Counted from the first letter of the stretch, positions 2,959 to 62,539 are shown. The stretch: DNA of 64,000 nucleotides from a virus (IMGVR_UViG_2706794662_000007); one strand, 5' to 3'. Translations and numbers: made by a program. The notes: generated from the letters alone by a model not told the origin.

Positions 2959-4897
2959 TTACTTAACCTGGTGGCCAGGTTTAGCACCAGCATCCGGGCT
3001 TAACAGGAAGATATCTTTCCCGCCAGGACCGGCAGCCATCACCATGCCTTCAGAGATACCGAAGCGCATTTTACGTGGTGCCAGGTTAGCCACCATAATG
3101 GTGTGACGACCAATCAGTGCCTGTGGATCTGGATAAGCGGAACGGATGCCTGAGAAGACATTACGCTTTTCACCACCGAGATCCAGCGTCAGGCGAAGCA
3201 GTTTGTCAGAACCTTCGACAAACTCCGCGTTTTCAATCAGCGCCACACGCAGGTCAACTTTGGCGAAGTCGTCAAAGGTGATGGTTTCCTGAATCGGTTC
3301 GTCAGCCAGTGGGCCAGTTACCGGTGCAGCTGTGGCTTTCACTTCTTCTTTGGATGCTTCCACCAGTGCTTCCACCTGTTTCATATCGATACGGTTATAC
3401 AGTGCCTTGAACGGATTCACTTTATGGCCCAGAAGCGGTTGCTGGATACCATCCCAGGTCAGTTCTGTATTCAGGAATGCTTCTGCACGTTCAGTCAGTT
3501 TCGGCAGTACCGGTTTCAGGTACGTCATCAGCACGCGGAACAGGTTAATGCCCATAGAGCAAATCGCCTGCAGATCTGCATCGCGACCTTCCTGCTTCGC
3601 CACCACCCACGGAGCCTGTTCATCGACATAGCGATTAGCCAGGTCAGCCAATGCCATGATTTCACGGATAGCTTTACCAAATTCGCGGCTTTCCCATGCT
3701 TCGCCAATCACTTCAGCGGCATCAGTAAAGGTTTTGTACAGTTGCGGGTCAGCCAGTTCGCTTGTCAGCACGCCGTCAAAACGCTTGTTGATAAAGCCTG
3801 CATTACGGGAGGCCAGGTTAACCACTTTGTTCACGATATCGGCATTCACGCGCTGAACGAAATCTTCCAGGTTGAGATCGATATCATCAATGCGCGAAGA
3901 GAGTTTCGCAGTGTAGTAGTAACGCAGGCTGTCAGCGTCAAAATGATTCAGCCAGGTGCTGGCTTTAATAAAGGTGCCGCGAGACTTGGACATCTTCGCG
4001 CCGTTCACCGTCACATAGCCGTGAACAAACAGGTTGGTCGGCTTGCGGAAGTTGCTGCCTTCCAGCATGGCAGGCCAGAACAGACTGTGGAAGTAAACGA
4101 TATCTTTGCCGATGAAGTGGTACAGCTCGGCGGTGGAGTCTTTCTTCCAGTATTCGTCGAAGCTTACGCTGTCGCCGCGCTTGTCGCACAGATTCTTGAA
4201 AGAACCCATGTAGCCAATCGGCGCGTCCAGCCAGACGTAGAAATATTTGCCCGGCGCGTTCGNNNNNNNNNNNNNNNNNNNNNNNNNNNNNNNNNNNNNN
4301 NNNNNNNNNNNNNNNNNNNNNNNNNNNNNNNNNNNNNNNNNNNNNNNNNNNNNNNNNNNNNNNNNNNNNNNNNNNNNNNNNNNNNNNNNNNNNNNNNNNN
4401 NNNNNNNNNNNNNNNNNNNNNNNNNNNNNNNNNNNNNNNNNNNNNNNNNNNNNNNNNNNNNNNNNNNNNNNNNNNNNNNNNNNNNNNNNNNNNNNNNNNN
4501 NNNNNNNNNNNNNNNNNNNNNNNNNNNNNNNNNNNNNNNNNNNNNNNNNNNNNNNNNNNNNNNNNNNNNNNNNNNNNNNNNNNNNNNNNNNCTCTTCGCT
4601 GTGCGTCGAGTGATAGTTGTCATAGCTGATGTTAAAGCCTGCGAAATCAGTCTGATGTTCCTGACTCATTTCGCCAATCATCTGTTCCGGTGTGATACCA
4701 AGCTGCTGTGCTTTCAGCATGATTGGCGTACCGTGGGCATCGTCGGCACAGATGAAATTAACCTCGTGGCCGCGCATTCGCTGGTAACGAACCCAGACAT
4801 CAGCCTGGATGTGCTCCAGCATATGGCCGAGGTGGATTGAGCCGTTAGCGTACGGCAGCGCGCACGTCACCAGAATTTTCTTCGCGACTTGGGTCAT
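2959..4897 (-). CDS. metG: methionyl-tRNA synthetase (interrupted by N-run 4263-4591)
   Basis: N-terminus [29 protein letters not shown] (HIGH motif) and C-terminus ...GAKPGHQVK match enterobacterial MetG as recalled; KMSKS present; ~140 residues hidden in the gap. Confidence 0.95.
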
Positions 4898-6767: not shown

Positions 6768-7286
6768 CTAAAAATCAAANNNNNNNNNNNNNNNNNNNNN
6801 NNNNNNNNNNNNNNNNNNNNNNNNNNNNNNNNNNNNNNNNNNNNNNNNNNNNNNNNNNNNNNNNNNNNNNNNNNNNNNNNNNNNNNNNNNNNNNNNNNNN
6901 NNNNNNNNNNNNNNNNNNNNNNNNNNNNNNNNNNNNNNNNNNNNNNNNNNNNNNNNNNNNNNNNNNNNNNNNNNNNNNNNNNNNNNNNNNNNNNNNNNNN
7001 NNNNNNNNNNNNNNNNNNNNNNNNNNNNNNNNTTTAAAGGAAGATAGGTTCCCCATAGTAGCTGTCTGCCGTGCGCTCGTGTGAAATACCGGGCCATCTT
7101 CGGATTGCTATGCTGCTTAGGAGCGCCTGGTCTGTATGTCTGATACCCGGCCAACATCCCATCAAACCTGTATAGAGGGAATGTAACAACTCCTTCGCTT
7201 TCATCGATCCACTGTCTATATGGATGCACATCATAGCGGTAGTTACGAGTTAGCAAATGAGCTTCCAGCTTTCCAAATTTAGTCAT
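6768..7286 (-). CDS. hypothetical protein, C-terminal part masked by N-run
   Basis: ATG at 7286 with GAGGGA SD; ORF runs into N-run 6780-7032, so the end is unreliable. Confidence 0.3.
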   Translation of the reverse strand: MTKFGKLEAHLLTRNYRYDVHPYRQWIDESEGVVTFPLYRFDGMLAGYQTYRPGAPKQHSNPKMARYFTRAHGRQLLWGTYLPLXXXXXXXXXXXXXXXXXXXXXXXXXXXXXXXXXXXXXXXXXXXXXXXXXXXXXXXXXXXXXXXXXXXXXXXXXXXXXXXXXXXXXFDF

Positions 7287-9338: not shown

Positions 9339-9611
9339 TTAACCCGCAGTGCNNNNNNNNNNNNNNNNNNNNNNNNNNNNNNNNNNNNNNNNNNNNNNNN
9401 NNNNNNNNNNNNNNNNNNNNNNNNNNNNNNNNNNNNNNNNNNNNNNNNNNNNNNNNNNNNNNNNNNNNNNNNNNNNNNNNNNNNNNNNNNNNNNNNNNNN
9501 NNNNNNNNNNNNNNNNNNNNNNNNNNNNNNNNNNNNNNNNNNNNNNNNNNNNNNNNNNNNNNNNNNNNNNNNNNNNNNNNNNNNNNNNNNNNNNNNNNNN
9601 NNAGTTGCCAT
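9339..9611 (-). CDS. hypothetical protein almost fully masked by N-run
   Basis: ATG at 9611 (MAT...) behind conserved junction GGAGAGTGATATG; body is N. Confidence 0.25.
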   Translation of the reverse strand: MATXXXXXXXXXXXXXXXXXXXXXXXXXXXXXXXXXXXXXXXXXXXXXXXXXXXXXXXXXXXXXXXXXXXXXXXXXXXXXXXXXXXXTAG

Positions 9612-19631: not shown

Positions 19632-20225
19632 CTAAGCAGCCTTCTTTGATGGTCTTTTTTTCCTGATCACATTCGCAGGATCATACCCTCCCAGACTTTT
19701 CATGACGTCCAAAGGGATCTTGCTTATAGAGTGCCCAGCGTCCTGACAGAATCCTCGAAAAACAACGAGCATACTGCCACCGGGGTTGATGTTTACTTCT
19801 ACCTGACCCAAATTGACGTCAGGCTCGACAAACGCTACGCGGCCACCAGACAGAATAATCGTCTCATTCGCATACTCTGTTGCACGCTCATACCACTTTG
19901 TATCGAGGGATTGAGGAATTAGCATCACTGTAGTAACTCCGCGAGCCTGCTCACGTATAGCAGCATCAATCCAGGGGGAGATTTTGGAGTAGGGTGGATT
20001 GAGGAAGGCAATTGTACCTGGCTGTCCCCATTCAGATTTCAAAGCATCACGCTCAATGCCTATGAAATTAGGCAGCTTTGCGTTGTCCTTGTTGCAGGCA
20101 ACGTCAACATCAAATGTCACTCCAAGATAACGTTGAATGGCAGAAAACAGCCAATCAGGTGTTCTCCAGAGGTCACGAAGAGAGTTGTCGCGCTTTCGCT
20201 GTTTGATTTTTTCGGCTGCAATCAT
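19632..20225 (-). CDS. dam: phage-type DNA N6-adenine methyltransferase (Dam-like)
   Basis: 197 aa with AFLNPPYS (NPPY catalytic motif). Confidence 0.8.
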   Translation of the reverse strand: MIAAEKIKQRKRDNSLRDLWRTPDWLFSAIQRYLGVTFDVDVACNKDNAKLPNFIGIERDALKSEWGQPGTIAFLNPPYSKISPWIDAAIREQARGVTTVMLIPQSLDTKWYERATEYANETIILSGGRVAFVEPDVNLGQVEVNINPGGSMLVVFRGFCQDAGHSISKIPLDVMKSLGGYDPANVIRKKRPSKKAA

Positions 20226-22425: not shown

Positions 22426-23070
22426 CTAATGAACGGTCACTCGACCACAGAACCGGTTTTCTATCTTTTCTACAGCGTTATCTAGCATTCTCATCACTGA
22501 TCTGGCTCTTGCTTCAACCGTGCGATATCGGTTGGAAACGACGAAGGTTTGCAGATCCCCCCTTTGCGGATGCAGGTGAATTTTTGTCAGTTCCCCGCAC
22601 ATCAACGCATCAATACGAGCGACATACAGACGGTCTAATGATGCTCGTTGTGATCGCAAGTAATCTCGCTCTGAGAGAGCGACTCCCGGGCGTAGGCCAG
22701 CAATGGCGTTAAAGTTTGAAATAGCAGTTTTGTGGCAAAACTTTTCGATATCGAGGGCTAACTCAATACATCGATCTTCATTGGTATGGCCGACCAAATC
22801 CAACGTGTAGGCCATAACATCAGCAGGTGTGCGATCGATAACAAAGCCTTCAACACCACGCGTAAGTAGCTCTATATGCTTTGCGATTTCCATTTGAATC
22901 TGAAGCCGCTCATATAGAGGCATAGACTCACCTACTCGAACACCGAGTCGGCTCATCAAACTTCCGACACCAGCATCCACGTAAGGGATTCCGTAATGTT
23001 TGTCGATATATTTTGCCAGGGTTGTTTTCCCACTGCCCTGAGCACCAGTGATCCCAATCCGGTAATCCAT
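22426..23070 (-). CDS. P-loop nucleotide kinase (dNMP/thymidylate kinase-like)
   Basis: Walker A GAQGSGKTT near N-terminus, 214 aa, inside nucleotide-metabolism operon. Confidence 0.5.
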   Translation of the reverse strand: MDYRIGITGAQGSGKTTLAKYIDKHYGIPYVDAGVGSLMSRLGVRVGESMPLYERLQIQMEIAKHIELLTRGVEGFVIDRTPADVMAYTLDLVGHTNEDRCIELALDIEKFCHKTAISNFNAIAGLRPGVALSERDYLRSQRASLDRLYVARIDALMCGELTKIHLHPQRGDLQTFVVSNRYRTVEARARSVMRMLDNAVEKIENRFCGRVTVH

Positions 23071-23546
23071 TACGACCTTCTGTATACGATCTGCGAAAAG
23101 CCAGGCTCTTCCTCGCTGGCTCGTTGGGTAAAAACTGTTTCAACAGGCACAAAGCCTAAATTACGCATCATGCTTGCCGGGAAGAATGCATCGGCGTTTG
23201 GCACATCAACGCCGATGTGGGAGAGCCAAATCTCTTCAACATGCGGCATGAATAGCGAGTAAATTTGTTCCCCGCCAATCACCCACACAGGCTCTGGTAA
23301 TCGCAACACATCATCCACACCAGCAGGGTAGAATCCATTTGGTACAAAGCCATGAGAGCGCGTCAAAACGAGGTTATGACGCTCTGGAAGAGGGCGTTTG
23401 AGACTTTCCATCGTTTTACGCCCCATAACGACAGTGGCGTTTTTGGTGAGTCTCTTAAATAGCTTCAGATCGGTAGAACAACGCCAGGGCAGTTCGTTCG
23501 CTATGCCGATCTCATAGTTACGGCCAACAGCAGCTATCATCTTCAT
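23070..23546 (-). CDS. folA: dihydrofolate reductase
   Basis: 158 aa; MIAAVGRNYEIG...LPW...VVMGRKT pattern typical of DHFR. Confidence 0.8.
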   Translation of the reverse strand: MKMIAAVGRNYEIGIANELPWRCSTDLKLFKRLTKNATVVMGRKTMESLKRPLPERHNLVLTRSHGFVPNGFYPAGVDDVLRLPEPVWVIGGEQIYSLFMPHVEEIWLSHIGVDVPNADAFFPASMMRNLGFVPVETVFTQRASEEEPGFSQIVYRRS

Positions 23547-23956
23547 TTGCTCACCTCATAGATGACCGGTCTATGATGAGAGTCAGCTAAAGCGGCACGG
23601 AGTCGAGGATCGTGCACCAGCGCAGCGATAAGCAGATCGCCTTTATGCTCCGCTAATGTGCGCTTAATATGCTTCTCATAACTGGTGCCATTCGGTACGA
23701 GATGAAGCCAGTCGTAATCAACGCCAAAATCTTTCAGCCATCGTTTAGTGGGCGCTTCAAGAGTTTCAGAGCGGCTACTGATAAGCACCACTTCAGCCCC
23801 TGAGCGAGCAAAACCACGCAACATACGGCTGGTGGGGAAAATGAGTTCATCACCGGCAATGAGCTGGCCTGCATCCGTGTCAGGTACAGATTTACGATGG
23901 CTGGTATTTGCCAGCACACCTTCAATTTCGCATAAGACATACATACCTCTTGCCAT
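23543..23956 (-). CDS. hypothetical protein, possible HAD-like phosphatase
   Basis: ORF track 23543..24004 starts at TTG; internal ATG MARGMYVLCEIEGV resembles a degenerate HAD motif I. Confidence 0.3.
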   Translation of the reverse strand: MARGMYVLCEIEGVLANTSHRKSVPDTDAGQLIAGDELIFPTSRMLRGFARSGAEVVLISSRSETLEAPTKRWLKDFGVDYDWLHLVPNGTSYEKHIKRTLAEHKGDLLIAALVHDPRLRAALADSHHRPVIYEVSK

Positions 23957-23957
23957 A

Positions 23958-25061
23958 TCACACCGCCACTGGAACCTTGATCCACGGTAGAGGGTCATAG
24001 CCAAGAATCAGAATATCGTCCCATTTGAAATCATCCAGCTCAGACCATTCATGAGGGAAAATAACGACCGGATCTGAATGCTCTGGAGCCTGTCGTTTCA
24101 TTAGCTCACACACACCTTCCATGTGGTTGTTGTACAAATGCACGTCAAAGCCAAAATGCACAAATGCACCGGCCATGTGACCCGTAATCTTCGCGAGAAA
24201 ATGAGTGAGAATGCCATAGCCAGCAATATTGAATGGCATACCAACAAAAGTGTCTACGCTACGCTGTACGAGGCAGGAGTTGAGGATGCGTTTGGGGATT
24301 CCAAGTTCATCCAGTTCAGTTTCAGTAACACTGCCGTCCATCTCCAGATCGTATAGCATCTTGGTGTAGATAGACTCATAACCGAAGCGACTGTGTTGAA
24401 GACCAATGTCAGTTGCCATCGTTAAACGGGTTTCAAAATCAAGCTCACGACTCCACAAAGAGAAGACAAAGTGGCAAGGTGGCAGTTTCATATCCTCAAG
24501 CTCGCCTACGTTCCATGCGTTAAGCATGATGCGACGATCGGTAGGGTTCGTGCGCAGTGTGTCGACAATACGCTGTAGCTGATCGATTTCACGGGACAGC
24601 ACTACGCGATCTTCACTGATACCCAGGTATCCCTCGACTTTGTACCCGCGTTCACGGAAAGTAGCGATCTTGCTCAGATATTCACTATGGCTCACGATGC
24701 GGGTATCTTCCCATCGACGCCACTGCTTACCGTAAACCGGCCCCAAATCGCCATTCTCATCGGCCCATGCATCCCAAATCTTAACGCCGTTATCCTTAAG
24801 AAATTGGATGTTGCCCGTGCCTTTCAGATACCACTCAAGTTCGACAAGCAGTGGCTTAAGATTTACCGCCTTTCCAGAAATAAGCGGCACAGTCCCACCA
24901 GTAAGCATGTAGTAAGAGGGAACGTAGCAGGTGCTTAAAGTACCAGTGCCTGTGCGATCATCAGTCTGCACGCCGCTTTTAAGCACCGTCTCAATAACTT
25001 TTGCATACGATGCGTTTGTTACCTGACCGTTCGTATGCTCACGATTCAAAAGGAGTGACAT
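23958..25061 (-). CDS. thyA: thymidylate synthase (ThyA family) with two insertions
   Basis: DRTGTGTLS, IWDAWADENGDLGPVYGKQWR, active-site PCH, QRSVDTFVGMPFNIAGY; 367 aa vs ~264 for E. coli ThyA. Confidence 0.85.
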   Translation of the reverse strand: MSLLLNREHTNGQVTNASYAKVIETVLKSGVQTDDRTGTGTLSTCYVPSYYMLTGGTVPLISGKAVNLKPLLVELEWYLKGTGNIQFLKDNGVKIWDAWADENGDLGPVYGKQWRRWEDTRIVSHSEYLSKIATFRERGYKVEGYLGISEDRVVLSREIDQLQRIVDTLRTNPTDRRIMLNAWNVGELEDMKLPPCHFVFSLWSRELDFETRLTMATDIGLQHSRFGYESIYTKMLYDLEMDGSVTETELDELGIPKRILNSCLVQRSVDTFVGMPFNIAGYGILTHFLAKITGHMAGAFVHFGFDVHLYNNHMEGVCELMKRQAPEHSDPVVIFPHEWSELDDFKWDDILILGYDPLPWIKVPVAV

Positions 25062-25144
25062 AAAACCTCACGAAGATAAGTAATCAATTATTTATCACGT
25101 GAGTTTACATTCATTGATAAAACAAGACCAGATAGATAAAAAAT

Positions 25145-25161
25145 GGTGGCCATAGGCCACC
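25145..25161 (-). terminator. hairpin terminator (minus sense)
   Basis: GGTGGCC-ATA-GGCCACC followed by T-run in minus sense. Confidence 0.5.
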
Positions 25162-25228
25162 AAAAAGAATAGTCGTTCCAGAGTTTTATACGCAAATCAA
25201 ATATACATTAGTAGATAATCACCTACAA

Positions 25229-26098
25229 TTATTTTTTGATCATTCCGTACATTGCTGAGGCTTTAGCTTGCTCAACAAAGGAGGATAAATCGACATCACT
25301 ATAGGTTGGAGACTTCAGAATCTTTCCATCGGAAATTCGAAAACCGATCATCTTATCGGTGCCATCAGCATGGCGAAATCCCAGGTCTGAAGAGTCGTAT
25401 TTGCAGTTGGCCACAGCCTGGCGACGTTCCTCTACATCAGCAGGCCATAATTTTGTCATGTTAGACCGATGAATTTCGCCAACCAGCTCGACTACATTGA
25501 TACCGAGGAAATCAGCCAGTCGATAGGTCATCATGCACGCCACATAGATTTTGTTCATGACACGGCGCAGTTCCTGAATCAGCTCAGAATCCTTAACAGT
25601 CTTGTTCTCAAGTTTATCTGCCAGCTCTTCGAGCATACATGACGCCTCACGAGCTTCCTGAAATGGCATTGCCATATCATCGAAAACAGTGTTACCGGGC
25701 ACAAAAATTGTCTGCATAAAGCGATCAATGCTCTGTTCCTGCGTGTAATAGGTCATGCCGGTAGAAATACCACCTTTGATGGCGACCATCGTACCAACAC
25801 CAACGTATAAAAAGTCGGCCATTGCATCCAGCAGTTGCTCAATATCCCCATTCATTGCAGCTGGAATACCTTCCACTACAGCTTCTTCATGAATCAGGCT
25901 TGCACGGAGACGAAGCAGCTCTGGTGTCGGCATAACGCGTCTCGGATGCTGGAAGAGTTCATGAAACTGATCGACCATCTTGTAAATACTTTCAGTAGCT
26001 ACACCATGACCTTCATGCAACTCATATGGTTCTGGCTTAAATCCAATGAGACGATCGGTGGCAAGTTTCAGGTGGTCAGTCAGTTTGGTAAAGTTCAT
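25229..26098 (-). CDS. MazG-like nucleotide pyrophosphohydrolase (putative)
   Basis: ATG at 26098 with AAGGAA SD; two EExxE...D-type MazG-like motifs. Confidence 0.4.
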   Translation of the reverse strand: MNFTKLTDHLKLATDRLIGFKPEPYELHEGHGVATESIYKMVDQFHELFQHPRRVMPTPELLRLRASLIHEEAVVEGIPAAMNGDIEQLLDAMADFLYVGVGTMVAIKGGISTGMTYYTQEQSIDRFMQTIFVPGNTVFDDMAMPFQEAREASCMLEELADKLENKTVKDSELIQELRRVMNKIYVACMMTYRLADFLGINVVELVGEIHRSNMTKLWPADVEERRQAVANCKYDSSDLGFRHADGTDKMIGFRISDGKILKSPTYSDVDLSSFVEQAKASAMYGMIKK

Positions 26099-26175
26099 GC
26101 TAGTTTTGTTCCTTCTTAATTCTTGTGATCCATTGTGGCCCAGCGTTGCCAGGTTACATAATGCTTTGTATCGGT

Positions 26176-27318
26176 TCACAGGTCTGCAAACTGGCTTAGA
26201 GAAGCCTTGTCCACGGTAGAATCGATCTGACCTACCAGATATGTGCTTTGCTCTGCCTCTTGTGGTGCAATTTGCAGTGTGTCGGTTAACAACCACTTGT
26301 TCATCCAGACCAGCGGATCGGTGGTAACCTCTGGAAATAAAGCCTTCAGGCCAAGACGATTCATAGCCAGATTGGTGCGGTATTTTACATAGGTCTTCAA
26401 AATATCCGCGTTTAAACCAATCATCGAACCGTCTTTGAAGAGATACTCGGCCCAGTTCATTTCTTGTTCGGCGACTGATTTCATGGTGTCGTAAATGACG
26501 TTTTCTTCATCAGCAGCAATCTCTTTCCACAATAAACCTTCGCGACCGGTACGCATGAAGCGGATCATGCGTTCAGTTCCTTCGCAATGCAGAGCTTCAT
26601 CACGGGCAATAAAGCGCATAATTTTGGTGTTACCCTCAAGCAACTTCCGTTCGCCAAAGGCAAACGTACATGCAAAACTTACATAGAAACGGATCGCCTC
26701 AAGCGCATTAATGGACACCAACGTGCGGAAAAGCTGACGGTGCAAAGGATATGGCTCCCAGCCATATTCATTTACGTACAGACGCTCAAATTCCTTCTCG
26801 CCTAACGACTGGCGCTCGCAGGTCATCCCATAAAGCCTGTCATATTCAGCAGAGATACTGATCGCTCGGTTGATGATTTCTTCATCCGTAACAATACCGT
26901 CAAAAACAATGCTCGGATCGTCCACCATGCCACGAATAATGTGGGTGTAGCTGCGGCTATGGATAGTCTCAGAGAAAGACCATGTTTCAACCCACGTTTC
27001 CAGTTCAGGAATAGAGATAAGCGGCAGCAGCGTTGCATTTGGGCTACGTCCCTGAACTGAATCGAGTAACGTTTGATAACGGAGATTGCTCAGAAAAATG
27101 TGACGTTCGTGGTCCCGCAGCTTCGTGTTGAAGTCGATACGATCGCTCGAAATATCAACTTCTTCCGGCCGCCAGAAGAAAGACAATTGACGTTCAATCA
27201 ACTTTTCAAAATCACGGTATTTTTGCTGATCGTAACGTGCCACGTTGACAGATTGTCCGAGGAACATAGGCTCTTTGGTTGCATCATTAGCACCCAAACG
27301 GAACGTTGAATATGACAT
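26176..27318 (-). CDS. nrdB: ribonucleotide reductase class Ia beta subunit
   Basis: MSYSTF...[20 protein letters not shown]...[32 protein letters not shown] closely parallels E. coli NrdB. Confidence 0.9.
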
Positions 27319-30391: not shown

Positions 30392-31135
30392 TTACCATGT
30401 TCCCCATATAGGGTTTTCCAATAATCTCGCCTCCAACGAATTGGTTACTATTGCCGTTTGCAACGTTGGTTGGGGAGAGTTTGCAAAGTCTGAATACTCA
30501 TTTTCCTGCGTGACACGTTTATCTACGGCATGTTTAACGCCACTTGCTATGAAATGACGCATGATGCCCAACAGCCTCCGACTGTCTGCACTATCGTTTG
30601 CTAAAACATGCGGGAGCTGAAGTTCGATTTCTACCATTTCTCCATACTTACCAACAAACTGTAGTTTGTCCGCACTGTACTTTTTATCCCTCCTTTGGAT
30701 AAGGAAACCAGTAAAAGCATCACCTGGCGATGCCAAACTATCCACCCGCTTATTGGCAAGTCGAATAAGGTTGGTGAAAGCCATACAGTGATGCGCACCC
30801 ATTCCCCCAAAGAACCCTTCGCTATTAATGTTAAGATCTTCATTTTCATGGGATGCAATAAACCCAGGCCCGACGTTGGGAAGATATCCCCCCTCAACAA
30901 AAGGATTAATCAGGATCGGCGCAATACATCCAGGTGGTAGTGATTTCAAACTTTGCATCAATGGCGTCTCGGATATTAGACCAAGCAACGCGGCAAATTG
31001 TACTCCGTCAATATTGTTGCTGCCCCACAGAATACGTGGAGCCGCACCATTGGAAGTATGCCCATTGATCAGTTTTATCGACTGCATCACTGCAAATACC
31101 TGCAAAAACTGCGAGCGGCTTAATTTAAACGACAT
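30392..31135 (-). CDS. hypothetical protein
   Basis: 247-aa ORF. Confidence 0.45.
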   Translation of the reverse strand: MSFKLSRSQFLQVFAVMQSIKLINGHTSNGAAPRILWGSNNIDGVQFAALLGLISETPLMQSLKSLPPGCIAPILINPFVEGGYLPNVGPGFIASHENEDLNINSEGFFGGMGAHHCMAFTNLIRLANKRVDSLASPGDAFTGFLIQRRDKKYSADKLQFVGKYGEMVEIELQLPHVLANDSADSRRLLGIMRHFIASGVKHAVDKRVTQENEYSDFANSPQPTLQTAIVTNSLEARLLENPIWGTW

Positions 31136-33058
31136 AGCTGCGCCCCTCTTTAACTTCCAGCGTAATAGTTTCCCGGAACCATGACTTCATCTCTTTATGG
31201 GAGATAATCAGCACAGTACCTCGCTCGCGAGCTTTGGACTCCAGAATACCCATGAGGCGTTCAAGACCGGCTGTATCGAGTGCATCGTCAATTTCGTCGC
31301 CGATAAACAAATCGATGTTTTTACTCGCCCGGTTACTAACCAGATCCTGCAATGCCAAAGAACACGCAATGCGAACCTTCCGCTTCTCACCACCAGAGAG
31401 GGTCTGGAACGACTTACTTGAACCTTTCTTCTGCACACTAATGTTGAATTTGTCGCGATACTCACCTTTTTTGGTGACATCCATCGTCGACCACTCAGCA
31501 GTAATATTCCCGTCAGACAACGTATTGAGATACTCGGCAGTGCGTGTATTCAGGAAAGGCGTAACAGACGTCAAAATATGAGAACGCACCCCGGCAGGAG
31601 AGTAGACCTGACGAGCTTTTTCCAATAGCAACGTTTGTTCCTGAATAGCCTTCAACTCATCTTTTAAGGACTTGAAGGTAGACTTACTGGATACCAGGTT
31701 ATCTTCGTGTCTGGCGATAAGAGCAATAAACGGATTAATCTCTTTTGATATACGATCGACCTCAGTACGAGCACGAGTCACAAGAGACTCAATAGCAACA
31801 ATCTCCTTCTCACGATGACGCAAAGATGAGAGTTGTTTCGTAAGCTCTTCAATCCGGGCAATGATAGCCGTTACATCAGGTGTCGTTTTAACAAGGGCAG
31901 ACTCAATGCTTAACGCTTTCTCAAGATTCGTTTTGTGTTTAGCCATTGCCTCTGCAAGTGTCTTCGCCTGACCAATTTCCTGACGTGCTTGTTCAATGAA
32001 ATTCTCCTTCACCGTTGATAGATCTTCTTCGCAGTAGGCTTTGCCACAAGTAGGGCATGGTGATCCCACTTTAGTACCAACCTCTTCTGCTTTGGTCTTA
32101 AAATTACGCGCGCGGTTCATTGCATCAGCCTGACTATTTTCTGTAGCTTTGATGCTTGCCCGAATATCAGTTATCGCACCACGAACNNNNNNNNNNNNNN
32201 NNNNNNNNNNNNNNNNNNNNNNNNNNNNNNNNNNNNNNNNNNNNNNNNNNNNNNNNNNNNNNNNNNNNNNNNNNNNNNNNNNNNNNNNNNNNNNNNNNNN
32301 NNNNNNNNNNNNNNNNNNNNNNNNNNNNNNNNNNNNNNNNNNNNNNNNNNNNNNNNNNNNNNNNNNNNNNNNNNNNNNNNNNNNNNNNNNNNNNNNNNNN
32401 NNNNNNNNNNNNNNNNNNNNNNNNNNNNNNNNNNNNNNNNNNNNNNNNNGATTGTCGACTCCAATTTGGTTTTAACCACATCCATACGTGCGGCAGCTGC
32501 ATTAGCTCGCTCACGAGCAATAGCGTAGGCGCGTGTCAGTCTGTCAACGCCAGCGGCTTCTTCTACGATGGTTTTGAGGTTTTTGTCGGACATTCCAGGT
32601 AAATCTGGCATAGCTTCTTGGCTCGCATAGATGGAAGCCATGAAAACCTCTTTAGATGCACCGATCAGACGCTCGACGAACTCTTGCGTCAGCGCATCTT
32701 TGCCTTTCGTCATATCGCCGTCTTCACCACGAACGATAAGCCGATTTTTGAACTCTTTGTGTTTACGGTGACGAATGATCGCATATCTCTTGCCTTCATC
32801 CTCGATGGTTACTGCAACACGACAGTTCTTTTCATGGTCGGTAGACAACACATCGTCACCCTTCACACCATGAGCTGTTTCGCCATAAAGACACCACATC
32901 AGGCTATTCATTAGCGTTGACTTTCCAGAGCCATTACTTGATGCGGAACTATCATCACTATTAACACCCTGAATGAGCACTAAACCACGCTGATCTAACT
33001 CGACCTCCGCGCTGGCGATAGCCATAAAATTCTCAACCTGGAGCTTTAAAAACTTCAT
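31125..33058 (-). CDS. sbcC: SbcC/Rad50-like ATPase (interrupted by N-run 32187-32449)
   Basis: N-terminal Walker A GSGKST; C-terminal signature LSGGE and Walker B DEIDDALD; coiled-coil middle. Confidence 0.75.
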
Positions 33059-42093: not shown

Positions 42094-43184
42094 TTACTCT
42101 TCTACTGACTCGGTGGGGTTGTCTTTTGCTCTTCGGTCGTCGATTGCCTGCAAAGCCGCAATGATTTCAGCCAGTGGCTTCTCCCGATACATCTCGACGA
42201 TCTGCGATTTGGTGTATTTCTTGTCACCAATTTCAACTCGCCCGCTGGCGTTCTTTGGCAGGTATCCTTCTTCCAGCATGTACTCGACGAGCGATTCGAT
42301 AACGTCGAGGCCACGAGTAGGATCGAAGTAGAATTTCCAGGTGCATTTGCCATACGGTGGTGCAACTTTGTTTTTGATGCATTCTGCGCCTACGTCCTGG
42401 CCGATCTTCTCTTTACCATCCTTCATCACCGATGCACCAAGACGGATACGTACAGAAGCGTAGAACTTCGGTGAATCTCCACCTGGAGACGTAGTAGGGT
42501 CGCCAAACATTACACCGATTTTTGTGCGAACCTGATTCAAGAAGATGATGCAGGCGTTGTATTTGCGTGCCCACAAAGCCAGAGTAGGGAAGTTCGCACT
42601 TGTCGCACGAGCCAGTGCCGTATTGTCGTTCATGTTTAGCTGATCTTTGTCTTTGGCAGTGCCTTCAGCCATCTTTTCGAACTTCTCGGCTTTGGAGTTC
42701 GGAACCATAGACGCAAGTGAGTCAGCCACGATACAGATAGGTGCTGATTCAGGAATAAGCTCTTCATCACGTACCAATTTAAGAATTGTGCCGATCAACT
42801 CTACAGAGTCTTCGAAGGTATCAGGCTGCTTGTATACCCACTGACCGTCATCCTCATCTGCATTCAAACCATTGGCTACAGCCAGGCCAACGTCAAAACT
42901 GTTCTCATGATCGAGGANNNNNNNNNNNNNNNNNNNNNNNNNNNNNNNNNNNNNNNNNNNNNNNNNNNNNNNNNNNNNNNNNNNNNNNNNNNNNNNNNNN
43001 NNNNNNNNNNNNNNNNNNNNNNNNNNNNNNNNNNNNNNNNNNNNNNNNNNNNNNNNNNNNNNNNNNNNNNNNNNNNNNNNNNNNNNNNNNNNNNNNNNNN
43101 NNNNNNNNNNNNNNNNNNNNNNNNNNNNNNNNNNNNNNNNNNNNNNNNNNNNNNNNNNNNNNNNNNNNNNNNNNNTTTTGCCAT
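42094..43184 (-). CDS. RecA-like recombinase (interrupted by N-run 42918-43175)
   Basis: IIFLNQVRTKIGVMFGDPTTSPGG...FYASVRIRL matches the RecA core; ATG at 43184 with AAGGAG SD. Confidence 0.75.
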
Positions 43185-61242: not shown

Positions 61243-62539
61243 TGTTGTTTTACCTCCATATGTTGATCGATTTGCTCATGTGTTTCTTTTGTTGTTTCTT
61301 CAAGCAACGCCGCATACACGTCAGTGATCGCTGTTTGTGATGTGGTGCTCTTCTTAACCATGCTATTAATCGTTACACTGTCACGTTTTCGTTTTAAAGT
61401 TCTGGCTTGTTTATTCCGTTCTTCAACCTCCTTAATGAGCGCGGTCATATCTTCGAAATACAGAGATTCTCCTTTACGAATCTCTTCAACCATCATTTTT
61501 AACGCCTTGCATTTGCCTGCTTTGATAGCGGTTGCGCACGACTGGAATGAAGTTCGAGGAAGACGGTTTTCTTTGAAGGCAAGAATGGTGTGCTGGCAAA
61601 CGGAGTAGCTGCAATATGCCGACTCACCGTTTATNNNNNNNNNNNNNNNNNNNNNNNNNNNNNNNNNNNNNNNNNNNNNNNNNNNNNNNNNNNNNNNNNN
61701 NNNNNNNNNNNNNNNNNNNNNNNNNNNNNNNNNNNNNNNNNNNNNNNNNNNNNNNNNNNNNNNNNNNNNNNNNNNNNNNNNNNNNNNNNNNNNNNNNNNN
61801 NNNNNNNNNNNNNNNNNNNNNNNNNNNNNNNNNNNNNNNNNNNNNNNNNNNNNNNNNNNNNNNNNNNNNNNNNNNNNNNNNNNNTAGCAATCCTGACCAC
61901 CTTCCAAGCAAATTCCGCCATTACGCCATCACATGCCTTCCCAGCATCAATAACGATATGCACCAGATCCAACTGGCTTTTGCACATGTCGCAAAGAGAC
62001 GCATACTCACTCTCTCTGATTACATTTACGGCATCATTAGCCCCTTTATTAAGCAAGACTTCCAACAGATTTTTCGGGGTAACGAAATCTGCTTTCAGAG
62101 ATAATGTCTTTTCACCACTTATCGAACGCAAGTACTCTTCGTAGTTATTCTTCATCAAACCGCTGCTGCGCATTGCTAGAACTGCTTCTTGAATGGCCGC
62201 TTCAATAGTTTCGTCGTTTGAAAGACAAAAAACGGTATTTGTGTAGATCACTCTGCCATCAAGCCATGCTCCAACCTGCACTTTAAGACTGAGCGGGTTT
62301 TCTTTGCTAATAAAAACAACTAATGCAGAACGTCGTGCACAAGAAGGTTCACCCCATACGTGTAACTTAACCTTCAGATAAGGTAGCCCCGGTAGCGGGA
62401 TCTCGACCAAACGAGTGGCGATATGATCCATTGCTGTTTTTACCGCTTTTTCAATGATGTCTAGTCGATTGCTCTCGCTGATTTCTAAACCAGTTTTATC
62501 AATGATGTCGCAGGCTAATTTCTGAATTTCGTCTTTCAT
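61239..62539 (-). CDS. hypothetical replication-associated protein (interrupted by N-run 61635-61884)
   Basis: two ORF pieces either side of the gap, between primase and ligase; frame continuity cannot be verified. Confidence 0.35.

Follow-up and report, generated by a model that had tools for sequence, protein, structure and literature searches.

Two ordered, probably peripheral insertions in the thymidylate synthase of an SSU5-like phage-plasmid

Does a thymidylate synthase (TS) that carries about a hundred more residues than E. coli ThyA still perform the ordinary methylation of dUMP, or do the extra residues alter its choice of substrate or equip it with a surface for regulation or interaction? 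The question is raised by a gene on a viral stretch of 64,000 nucleotides (IMGVR_UViG_2706794662_000007; the whole stretch analysed is called the window below), for which a reading made from the sequence alone had proposed both of the latter possibilities. Ordinary TS chemistry combined with peripheral, ordered insertions is the best explanation overall, and we consider it very probably the right one. The insertions were correctly observed, and they are an ordinary feature of a mostly phage-borne ThyA subfamily.

The thyA gene and its transcription unit

The window belongs to an SSU5-like phage-plasmid. Its thyA gene (1104 nt) shares 100% identity with that of Escherichia phage CMS-2020a, 99.8% with PhiR41_1 and 77.7% with Salmonella phage SSU5, and the identical protein is already in GenBank, where it is named thymidylate synthase. 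A Rep3-type plasmid initiator lies ~10 kb from thyA, and the gene order of the thyA region is also kept in SSU5 and in Klebsiella phage pJN2-26. The features of the region are as follows:

25144-25162, minus strand: terminator-like hairpin and T run between the MazG-like gene and thyA (consensus scan)
25066-25069, minus strand: GAGG ribosome-binding site, 4 nt upstream of the thyA ATG (direct sequence reading)
23958-25061, minus strand: thyA coding sequence, 367 aa plus stop (PF00303, TIGR03284, phrog_160)
25011-25061, minus strand: N-terminal extension, residues 1-17, not in E. coli ThyA (alignment)
24594-24710, minus strand: insertion 1, residues 118-156, a beta/alpha subdomain (phmmer/MAFFT boundaries, AF2)
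24474-24476, minus strand: codon of the catalytic C196 (E. coli C146) in the PPCH motif (alignment mapping)
24285-24452, minus strand: insertion 2, residues 204-259, a three-helix unit (phmmer/MAFFT boundaries, AF2)
23543-23956, minus strand: HAD/PNKP-phosphatase-like gene, 137 aa (phrog_5387, weak PF25109 match, annotated homologues)
23070-23546, minus strand: dihydrofolate reductase gene, dfr (PF00186, E 2.9e-34; NCBIfam DfrA51)
22426-23070, minus strand: P-loop nucleotide-kinase-like gene (PF13521 AAA_28, E 2e-9; phrog_2107)

The thyA product matches the Pfam family PF00303 (Thymidylat_synt) with an E of 2.4e-79 and 266.7 bits against a cutoff of 24.3, scores 222.7 bits against the TIGR03284 equivalog (cutoff 108.35), and finds phrog_160, thymidylate synthase, at an E of 6.8e-96; the TS fold is present. 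The gene encodes a genuine classical ThyA-type thymidylate synthase and can safely be annotated thyA.

Downstream, the ATG of the HAD-like gene lies 1 nt past the thyA stop, the HAD-like gene and dfr share an ATGA overlap, and a TAATG overlap joins dfr to the P-loop kinase-like gene, which itself matches phrog_2107 (“thymidylate kinase”) at an E of 2.9e-10. These junctions indicate that thyA, the HAD-like gene, dfr and the P-loop kinase gene are a translationally coupled operon with thyA in first position. The upstream neighbour of thyA is the MazG-like gene, beyond the terminator-like hairpin, whose 8-bp stem has 6 G-C pairs and is followed by TTTTTTAT, a match to consensus only; ribonucleotide reductase genes lie just upstream of the thyA region.

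Several details of gene annotation emerged alongside. The start codon at 25059-25061 is ATG here, versus TTG at the same codon position in the SSU5 and pJN2-26 orthologues. The mechanical list of ORFs over-extends both the HAD-like and the MazG-like neighbour of thyA: the former is listed as 23543-24004, while its true start is the ATG at 23956, giving 137 aa (profile positions 1-137 of the 137 in phrog_5387 align to residues 17-153 of the longer ORF), and the latter (25229-26296, minus strand) is listed as 355 aa from a GTG, versus 234-291 aa as annotated in PhiR41_1, SSU5 and pJN2-26. The dfr product matches the NCBIfam model NF047324, “trimethoprim-resistant dihydrofolate reductase DfrA51”, over its full length with 334.1 bits (cutoff 322), and scores 297 bits against DfrA50, below the cutoff of 355. 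Since the phage gene lies above the DfrA51 cutoff, the NCBI pipeline would assign a conserved gene of the phage to antimicrobial resistance. SSU5 figures in a 2025 paper on trimethoprim-resistant dfrA genes of phages, where it is named solely as a temperate phage that was reclassified (PMC12466917).

Elsewhere in the window, seven masked runs of N occur, of 250-329 bases each (4263-4591, 6780-7032, 9353-9602, 13174-13428, 32187-32449, 42918-43175 and 61635-61884); thyA is touched by none of them. The run at 32187-32449 falls inside an SbcC/AAA-ATPase-like gene, which appears as two ORFs (31125-32120 and 32171-33058) because the run interrupts it; the PhiR41_1 counterpart is a single CDS of 638 aa. 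The run at 13174-13428 likewise interrupts the ORF of a 537-aa DUF4942-domain protein (13142-14755, minus strand). This gene and that of a Dam-type N6-adenine DNA methyltransferase (19632-20225, minus strand) lie about 4-10 kb from thyA, and adenine methylation is the sole DNA modification function seen in that part of the window.

Catalytic residues and choice of substrate

When the protein is mapped by alignment to E. coli ThyA, all 18 of the catalytic and ligand-binding residues checked are conserved, which bears out the sequence-only reading on the presence and high conservation of the ThyA catalytic blocks. In E. coli numbering these residues are R21, E58, W80, W83, Y94, R126, R127, C146, H147, Q165, R166, S167, D169, N177, H207, Y209 and the C-terminal Ala-Val, and they are retained in 46-47 of 47 insertion-bearing homologues. 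The phosphate-binding and catalytic equivalents in the phage protein (R36, R176, R177, C196, H197, R267 and S268) form invariant columns in an alignment of 98 sequences (A1), and the folate and hydride-transfer equivalents are E74, W96, W99, Y110, D270, H308 and Y310, together with a C-terminus that reads PVAV. E. coli ThyA (264 aa; e.g., PDB 1TYS, 2TSC) thus far resembles the phage enzyme closely, having the same fold (Foldseek TM 0.94 normalised to target), the same catalytic and ligand-binding residues and the same P-V-A-V/I terminus; the core of the phage protein is ~46-48% identical to sampled ordinary 264-aa ThyAs.

We propose that the enzyme converts dUMP to dTMP, using methylene-tetrahydrofolate for the methylation, and that the dihydrofolate set free is recycled by DHFR, whose gene is the second after thyA in the coupled operon. 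The ~100 additional residues would leave this chemistry unchanged, forming two ordered subdomains at the periphery, of a kind characteristic of a ThyA subfamily carried mostly by phages. A search of the literature found no enzyme assay of any ThyA bearing insertion 2.

It has to be weighed whether the protein is instead a dUMP/dCMP hydroxymethylase or another pyrimidine-modifying paralogue of ThyA, the insertions reshaping the active site of an enzyme that serves a phage with a modified base. ThyA homologues do act as hydroxymethylases in several phages (PMC8989533, PMC7824862), and the MazG-like pyrophosphohydrolase, HAD-like phosphatase and nucleotide kinase that flank thyA resemble in outline the enzymes of hydroxymethyluracil phages (PMC8989533), although the same set is also common in phages with ordinary DNA. 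We nevertheless regard this possibility as highly improbable, first on account of the residues themselves. Positions 177 and 147 (N177 and H147 in E. coli) track the use of dUMP versus dCMP in the superfamily (PMC8670742); here position 177 is Asn (N278, Asn in 47/47 insertion-bearing homologues) and not the Asp of dCMP enzymes, and position 147 is His. The complete folate and hydride-transfer set and the terminal PVAV are kept, the core has the identity to ordinary ThyAs given above, and neither in sequence nor in fold is the protein closer to hydroxymethylases of the T4 gp42 and SPO1 gp29 type than to TS.

The genes around thyA speak in the same direction. DHFR is needed by TS and not by hydroxymethylases (PMC4528723), because only true TS oxidises its folate whereas dUMP hydroxymethylase does not, and dfr is translationally coupled downstream of thyA. 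Among 20 ORFs of at least 110 aa between 12.3 and 40 kb of the window, no Pfam match was found to aGPT-Pplase, 5-hmU DNA kinase, glycosyltransferase or thymidine-hypermodification families. The conserved residues, including Asn177 and PVAV, together with the coupled dfr operon argue for normal dTMP synthesis and not for a modified pyrimidine, and the need of TS for DHFR along with the lack of modification genes among these 20 ORFs makes an altered substrate unlikely. Furthermore, insertion 2 leaves its strand ~9 residues from the catalytic Cys, and insertion 1 also occurs in a housekeeping TS. The earlier proposal that the insertions change substrate specificity, for instance toward a modified pyrimidine, hence found no support.

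Position, structure and known relatives of the insertions

With 367 aa the phage protein is 103 residues longer than E. coli ThyA, in agreement with the excess of about 100 residues first noticed. As mapped to E. coli ThyA with MAFFT, insertion 1 (q118-156, in residues of the query) stands in place of the P102-G106 loop, with a net gain of about 34 residues, and insertion 2 (q204-259) in place of the V154-K158 hairpin turn, with a net gain of about 51; the first site holds 5 residues in E. coli versus 39 in the phage enzyme, the second 7 versus 58. Searched against the PDB with phmmer, the protein always matches in three pieces (q18-119, q156-203 and q261-367). The description of the extra residues as two blocks is right as far as it goes, but there are also an N-terminal extension of 15-17 aa, which E. 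coli ThyA lacks, and ~2 residues near the C-terminus. This extension is the least conserved part (53% aa identity to SSU5) and is modelled with lower confidence (mean pLDDT 73, residues 1-10). Both insertions lie at the sites first indicated, yet not directly beside the motifs named: insertion 1 begins 3 residues past GKQWR, i.e., after GKQWRRW, and insertion 2, which had been placed immediately after PCH, begins in the alignment 7 residues past it, where the strand that starts with the catalytic Cys reaches its far end.

The AF2 model of the protein has a mean pLDDT of 95.1 and a pTM of 0.93, and both insertions are ordered in it (block pLDDT 93-98). Insertion 1 is predicted to form a strand (117-124), two helices (125-130 and 132-137) and two further strands (141-146 and 152-159) at pLDDT 95-98, and would elaborate the surface loop that precedes the helix beginning at E. 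coli D110. Insertion 2 is predicted to consist of three helices (209-225, 231-242 and 247-253; pLDDT 94-98), and its sequence is net acidic by count. In the model, a 10-residue strand (197-206) leads into it from the catalytic Cys, and a 13-residue strand (258-270) leads back, terminating in Q-R-S-x-D, from which it follows that insertion 2 would stand out from the hairpin at the end farther from the active site of its own subunit; it departs from its strand about nine residues from the catalytic Cys. In E. coli terms it would grow from the tip of the hairpin made by the Cys146 strand and the Q165-R166-S167 strand.

The locations of both insertions, as given here, derive from predicted secondary structure and from the literature. 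W203, the residue just before insertion 2, corresponds in the alignment to E. coli Y153 and human Y202. The human residue is located at the perimeter of the monomer-monomer interface, where it stacks against F59' of the partner subunit and has R175 (E. coli R126) as a neighbour (PMC9831607). Given this correspondence, the most likely point of departure for insertion 2 is the rim of the dimer interface, which would place it close to the arginines extending into the active site of the partner subunit. We infer that, instead of altering the choice of substrate, the insertions may reinforce or extend the dimer rim or provide a surface for docking.

Group I introns and homing endonucleases are frequent in phage td and thyA genes, and one of the database hits is annotated as a split thymidylate synthase with a homing endonuclease; the insertions might then be relics of an intein, intron or homing endonuclease, or else artefacts of sequencing or ORF calling. 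Such an origin is effectively refuted. The two segments are in frame, 39 and 56 residues long, and occupy the same position across genomes at 77-100% nucleotide identity; they are under purifying selection, modelled with pLDDT above 93 and present in divergent lineages; insertion 1 has been seen folded in a crystal structure (3V8H); and the masked N runs all lie outside thyA. An intein, specifically, needs at least ~130 aa with a Cys or Ser at its start and His-Asn at its end, whereas the insertions measure 39 and 56 aa and are without such termini. A derivation from introns was likewise rejected, the segments being in frame, conserved as protein and modelled as integral folded parts.

Insertion 1 is the same element as that in the crystal structure of a Burkholderia housekeeping ThyA. 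The B. thailandensis enzyme (PDB 3V8H, 323 aa, Burkholderiales type) aligns unbroken through q104-203, insertion 1 superposes on it, and the two share the motifs RG[FY] and [DK][KR]V[VL]L..IDQL; as in the long ThyAs of the Burkholderiales, a beta/alpha subdomain lies between QWR.W and IDQL. In other respects this enzyme differs from the phage protein. It has only ~3 extra residues at the site of insertion 2, as have the other bacterial enzymes with insertion 1, and further insertions of its own, before GDLG and near the C-terminus; its core is more divergent (28% identity); and the position of E. coli W83 is substituted, being Asn in the sequences compared (PMC3561365). At 137.8 bits against a cutoff of 576 for NF010393 (PRK13821), the phage protein is not a member of that family.

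The same site is also occupied in human and other eukaryotic TS, whose “eukaryotic insert 1” follows QWRHF; this insert has only ~8-12 residues, shows no detectable sequence similarity to insertion 1, and is accompanied by an empty second site. That the TS fold tolerates such additions is illustrated by Lactobacillus casei TS, an otherwise canonical active enzyme with a 50-residue insert in its small domain. In the alignment, this insert lies between WDEWA and GDLG, upstream of GKQWR. An equation of insertion 1 with the L. casei insert was rejected, the latter lying before GDLG and not after GKQWR.

For insertion 2, a search against the sequences of the PDB gave no match at E<=10, and no solved structure contains it. 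In jumbo-phage ThyAs (e.g., SPN3US_0229, 338 aa; B3FJL1 of 201phi2-1, 457 aa), both insertion sites are filled. SPN3US-like, Erwinia, CR5 and phiKZ-like ThyAs share the anchors TRELxxxER ... MDxLxIPRRxL and W.D.K.V ... GY, and no solved TS reaches the coverage of the query that is attained by predicted jumbo-phage structures (TMq 0.82-0.85 versus 0.68 for E. coli TS). The jumbo-phage enzymes are only 38-41% identical to the query, differ from it in the length and sequence of the middles of both insertions, and some are much longer (457-471 aa). Their gene neighbourhoods differ as well: thyA of SPN3US is flanked by unrelated hypothetical genes, and dfr is not adjacent.

Distribution and possible roles of the insertions

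No SSU5-like ThyA in the sample lacks either insertion; the sampled genes lie on contigs of ~100-120 kb from Escherichia, Salmonella, Klebsiella, Raoultella, Enterobacter, Providencia, Morganella and Xenorhabdus. The next-best phage matches after this group are SPN3US-like, Erwinia and Cronobacter CR5 phages and related jumbo phages, at 38-41% identity, and the three metagenomic carriers that were looked up all lie on phage-like contigs (104-356 kb). Insertion 2 occurs almost only on phage or phage-plasmid DNA, and all of its 51 carriers (51/51) also have insertion 1; insertion 1 occurs alone in five sequences and insertion 2 alone in none. In a scan of species-representative genomes, insertion 1 was found in the chromosomal thyA of Burkholderia, Paraburkholderia, Duganella, Rugamonas, other Oxalobacteraceae and Usitatibacter. 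The possibility that the insertions are simply common in ordinary ThyA is therefore half true: insertion 1 is found in the housekeeping ThyA of the Burkholderiales and in a crystal structure, and the two insertions together are widespread in phage ThyAs. Our literature search found no description of these insertions in phage ThyA.

The ends of insertion 2 are conserved, as S/T-x-E-L/M-xxx-E-R and L/M-D-xxx-I/V-P-R/K-R-x-L, and are shared with jumbo-phage ThyAs, while its middle varies from 35 to 71 residues across carriers and differs in sequence too. Among this phage, SSU5 and the Klebsiella relative, dN is 0.09-0.22 in the insertions versus 0.06-0.13 in the core; as dS is saturated and dN/dS not computable for most regions, dN values alone were compared. 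The insertion dN being only modestly above that of the core at saturated dS, both insertions are under purifying selection. A crude NJ tree built from the core columns does not unite the insertion-bearing ThyAs in one clade; 264-aa sequences are nested among them.

A profile of insertion 2 (A2, 20 sequences) returned five matches among 1.84 billion representatives, a count that does not gauge the spread of insertion 2, the profile being too short for so divergent a subfamily. Four of the five are ThyA or frameshifted fragments of ThyA. Two metagenomic sequences, P0121 and P0123, are frameshifted or truncated copies of SSU5-type thyA, the reading frame of one breaking off after QRSVD and that of the other in the PCH region, which suggests occasional decay of thyA or assembly errors in related elements. 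P0124, a 263-aa metagenomic HTH-repeat protein (E 2e-4, four stretches), was considered as a relative of insertion 2 and set aside as probably a chance motif match; its HTH-like units end in “W.xEYKIPKRS”, and the shared “YKIPKRS” aligns to the C-terminal anchor of insertion 2.

That insertion 2 never occurs without insertion 1 is a hint of joint function that a reading of the insertions as mere decoration leaves unexplained. An interaction or regulatory surface, the second proposal made from the sequence, is possible and mildly favoured by the position of insertion 2 on the dimer rim. More ambitiously, the two insertions could be one dedicated module of an enzyme that is still a TS, either docking a partner enzyme or gating or regulating the active site of the partner subunit. 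Candidate docking partners would be the co-encoded DHFR, kinase or ribonucleotide reductase, between which folate and nucleotides would be channelled, on the model of phage dNTP-synthesising complexes or of bifunctional DHFR-TS. We hold such a module to be unlikely on balance, though with an appreciable chance of being right. The strict co-occurrence of insertion 2 with insertion 1 (51/51) is consistent with it, as are the anchor motifs, whose invariant Arg and Pro are kept across very divergent members, the confident order of both insertions in the AF2 model and their purifying selection. The place of insertion 2 also fits, starting right after the equivalent of human Y202 at the interface perimeter, next to R175, i.e., E. 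coli R126 (PMC9831607), and so does its near-exclusive occurrence on phage and phage-plasmid DNA, where nucleotide-metabolism genes cluster. However, nothing direct points to any partner of the insertions, a housekeeping bacterial ThyA works with insertion 1 alone, the middle of insertion 2, variable in length (35-71 residues) and sequence, is more in keeping with a structural spacer than with a specific binding site, and the genes beside thyA in SPN3US are unrelated hypothetical ones and not dfr.

A more specific joint function of the two insertions appears unlikely. Its fullest form strikes us as quite improbable, namely that the insertions together make up a phage-specific functional subdomain on the dimer rim, beside the arginines that complete the partner active site, which would dock DHFR, kinase or ribonucleotide reductase for the channelling of dihydrofolate and dTMP while the phage replicates, or confer insensitivity to a host control or defence aimed at ordinary ThyA. 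The preferred reading remains that of an ordinary TS with peripheral, ordered insertions.

For SSU5-like phage-plasmids, the ~100 extra residues of ThyA should consequently not be taken as a sign of a modified base. An insertion-bearing ThyA subfamily can now be defined by its conserved anchors, by an ordered three-helix unit without solved precedent and by the strict co-occurrence described above, and it ranges from phage-plasmids of the Enterobacterales to jumbo phages of the nucleus-forming type. If the insertions mediate assembly with enzymes of nucleotide metabolism, this would bear on how phages organise dNTP synthesis, and such a role, if true, would provide a handle to tell phage TS from that of the host.
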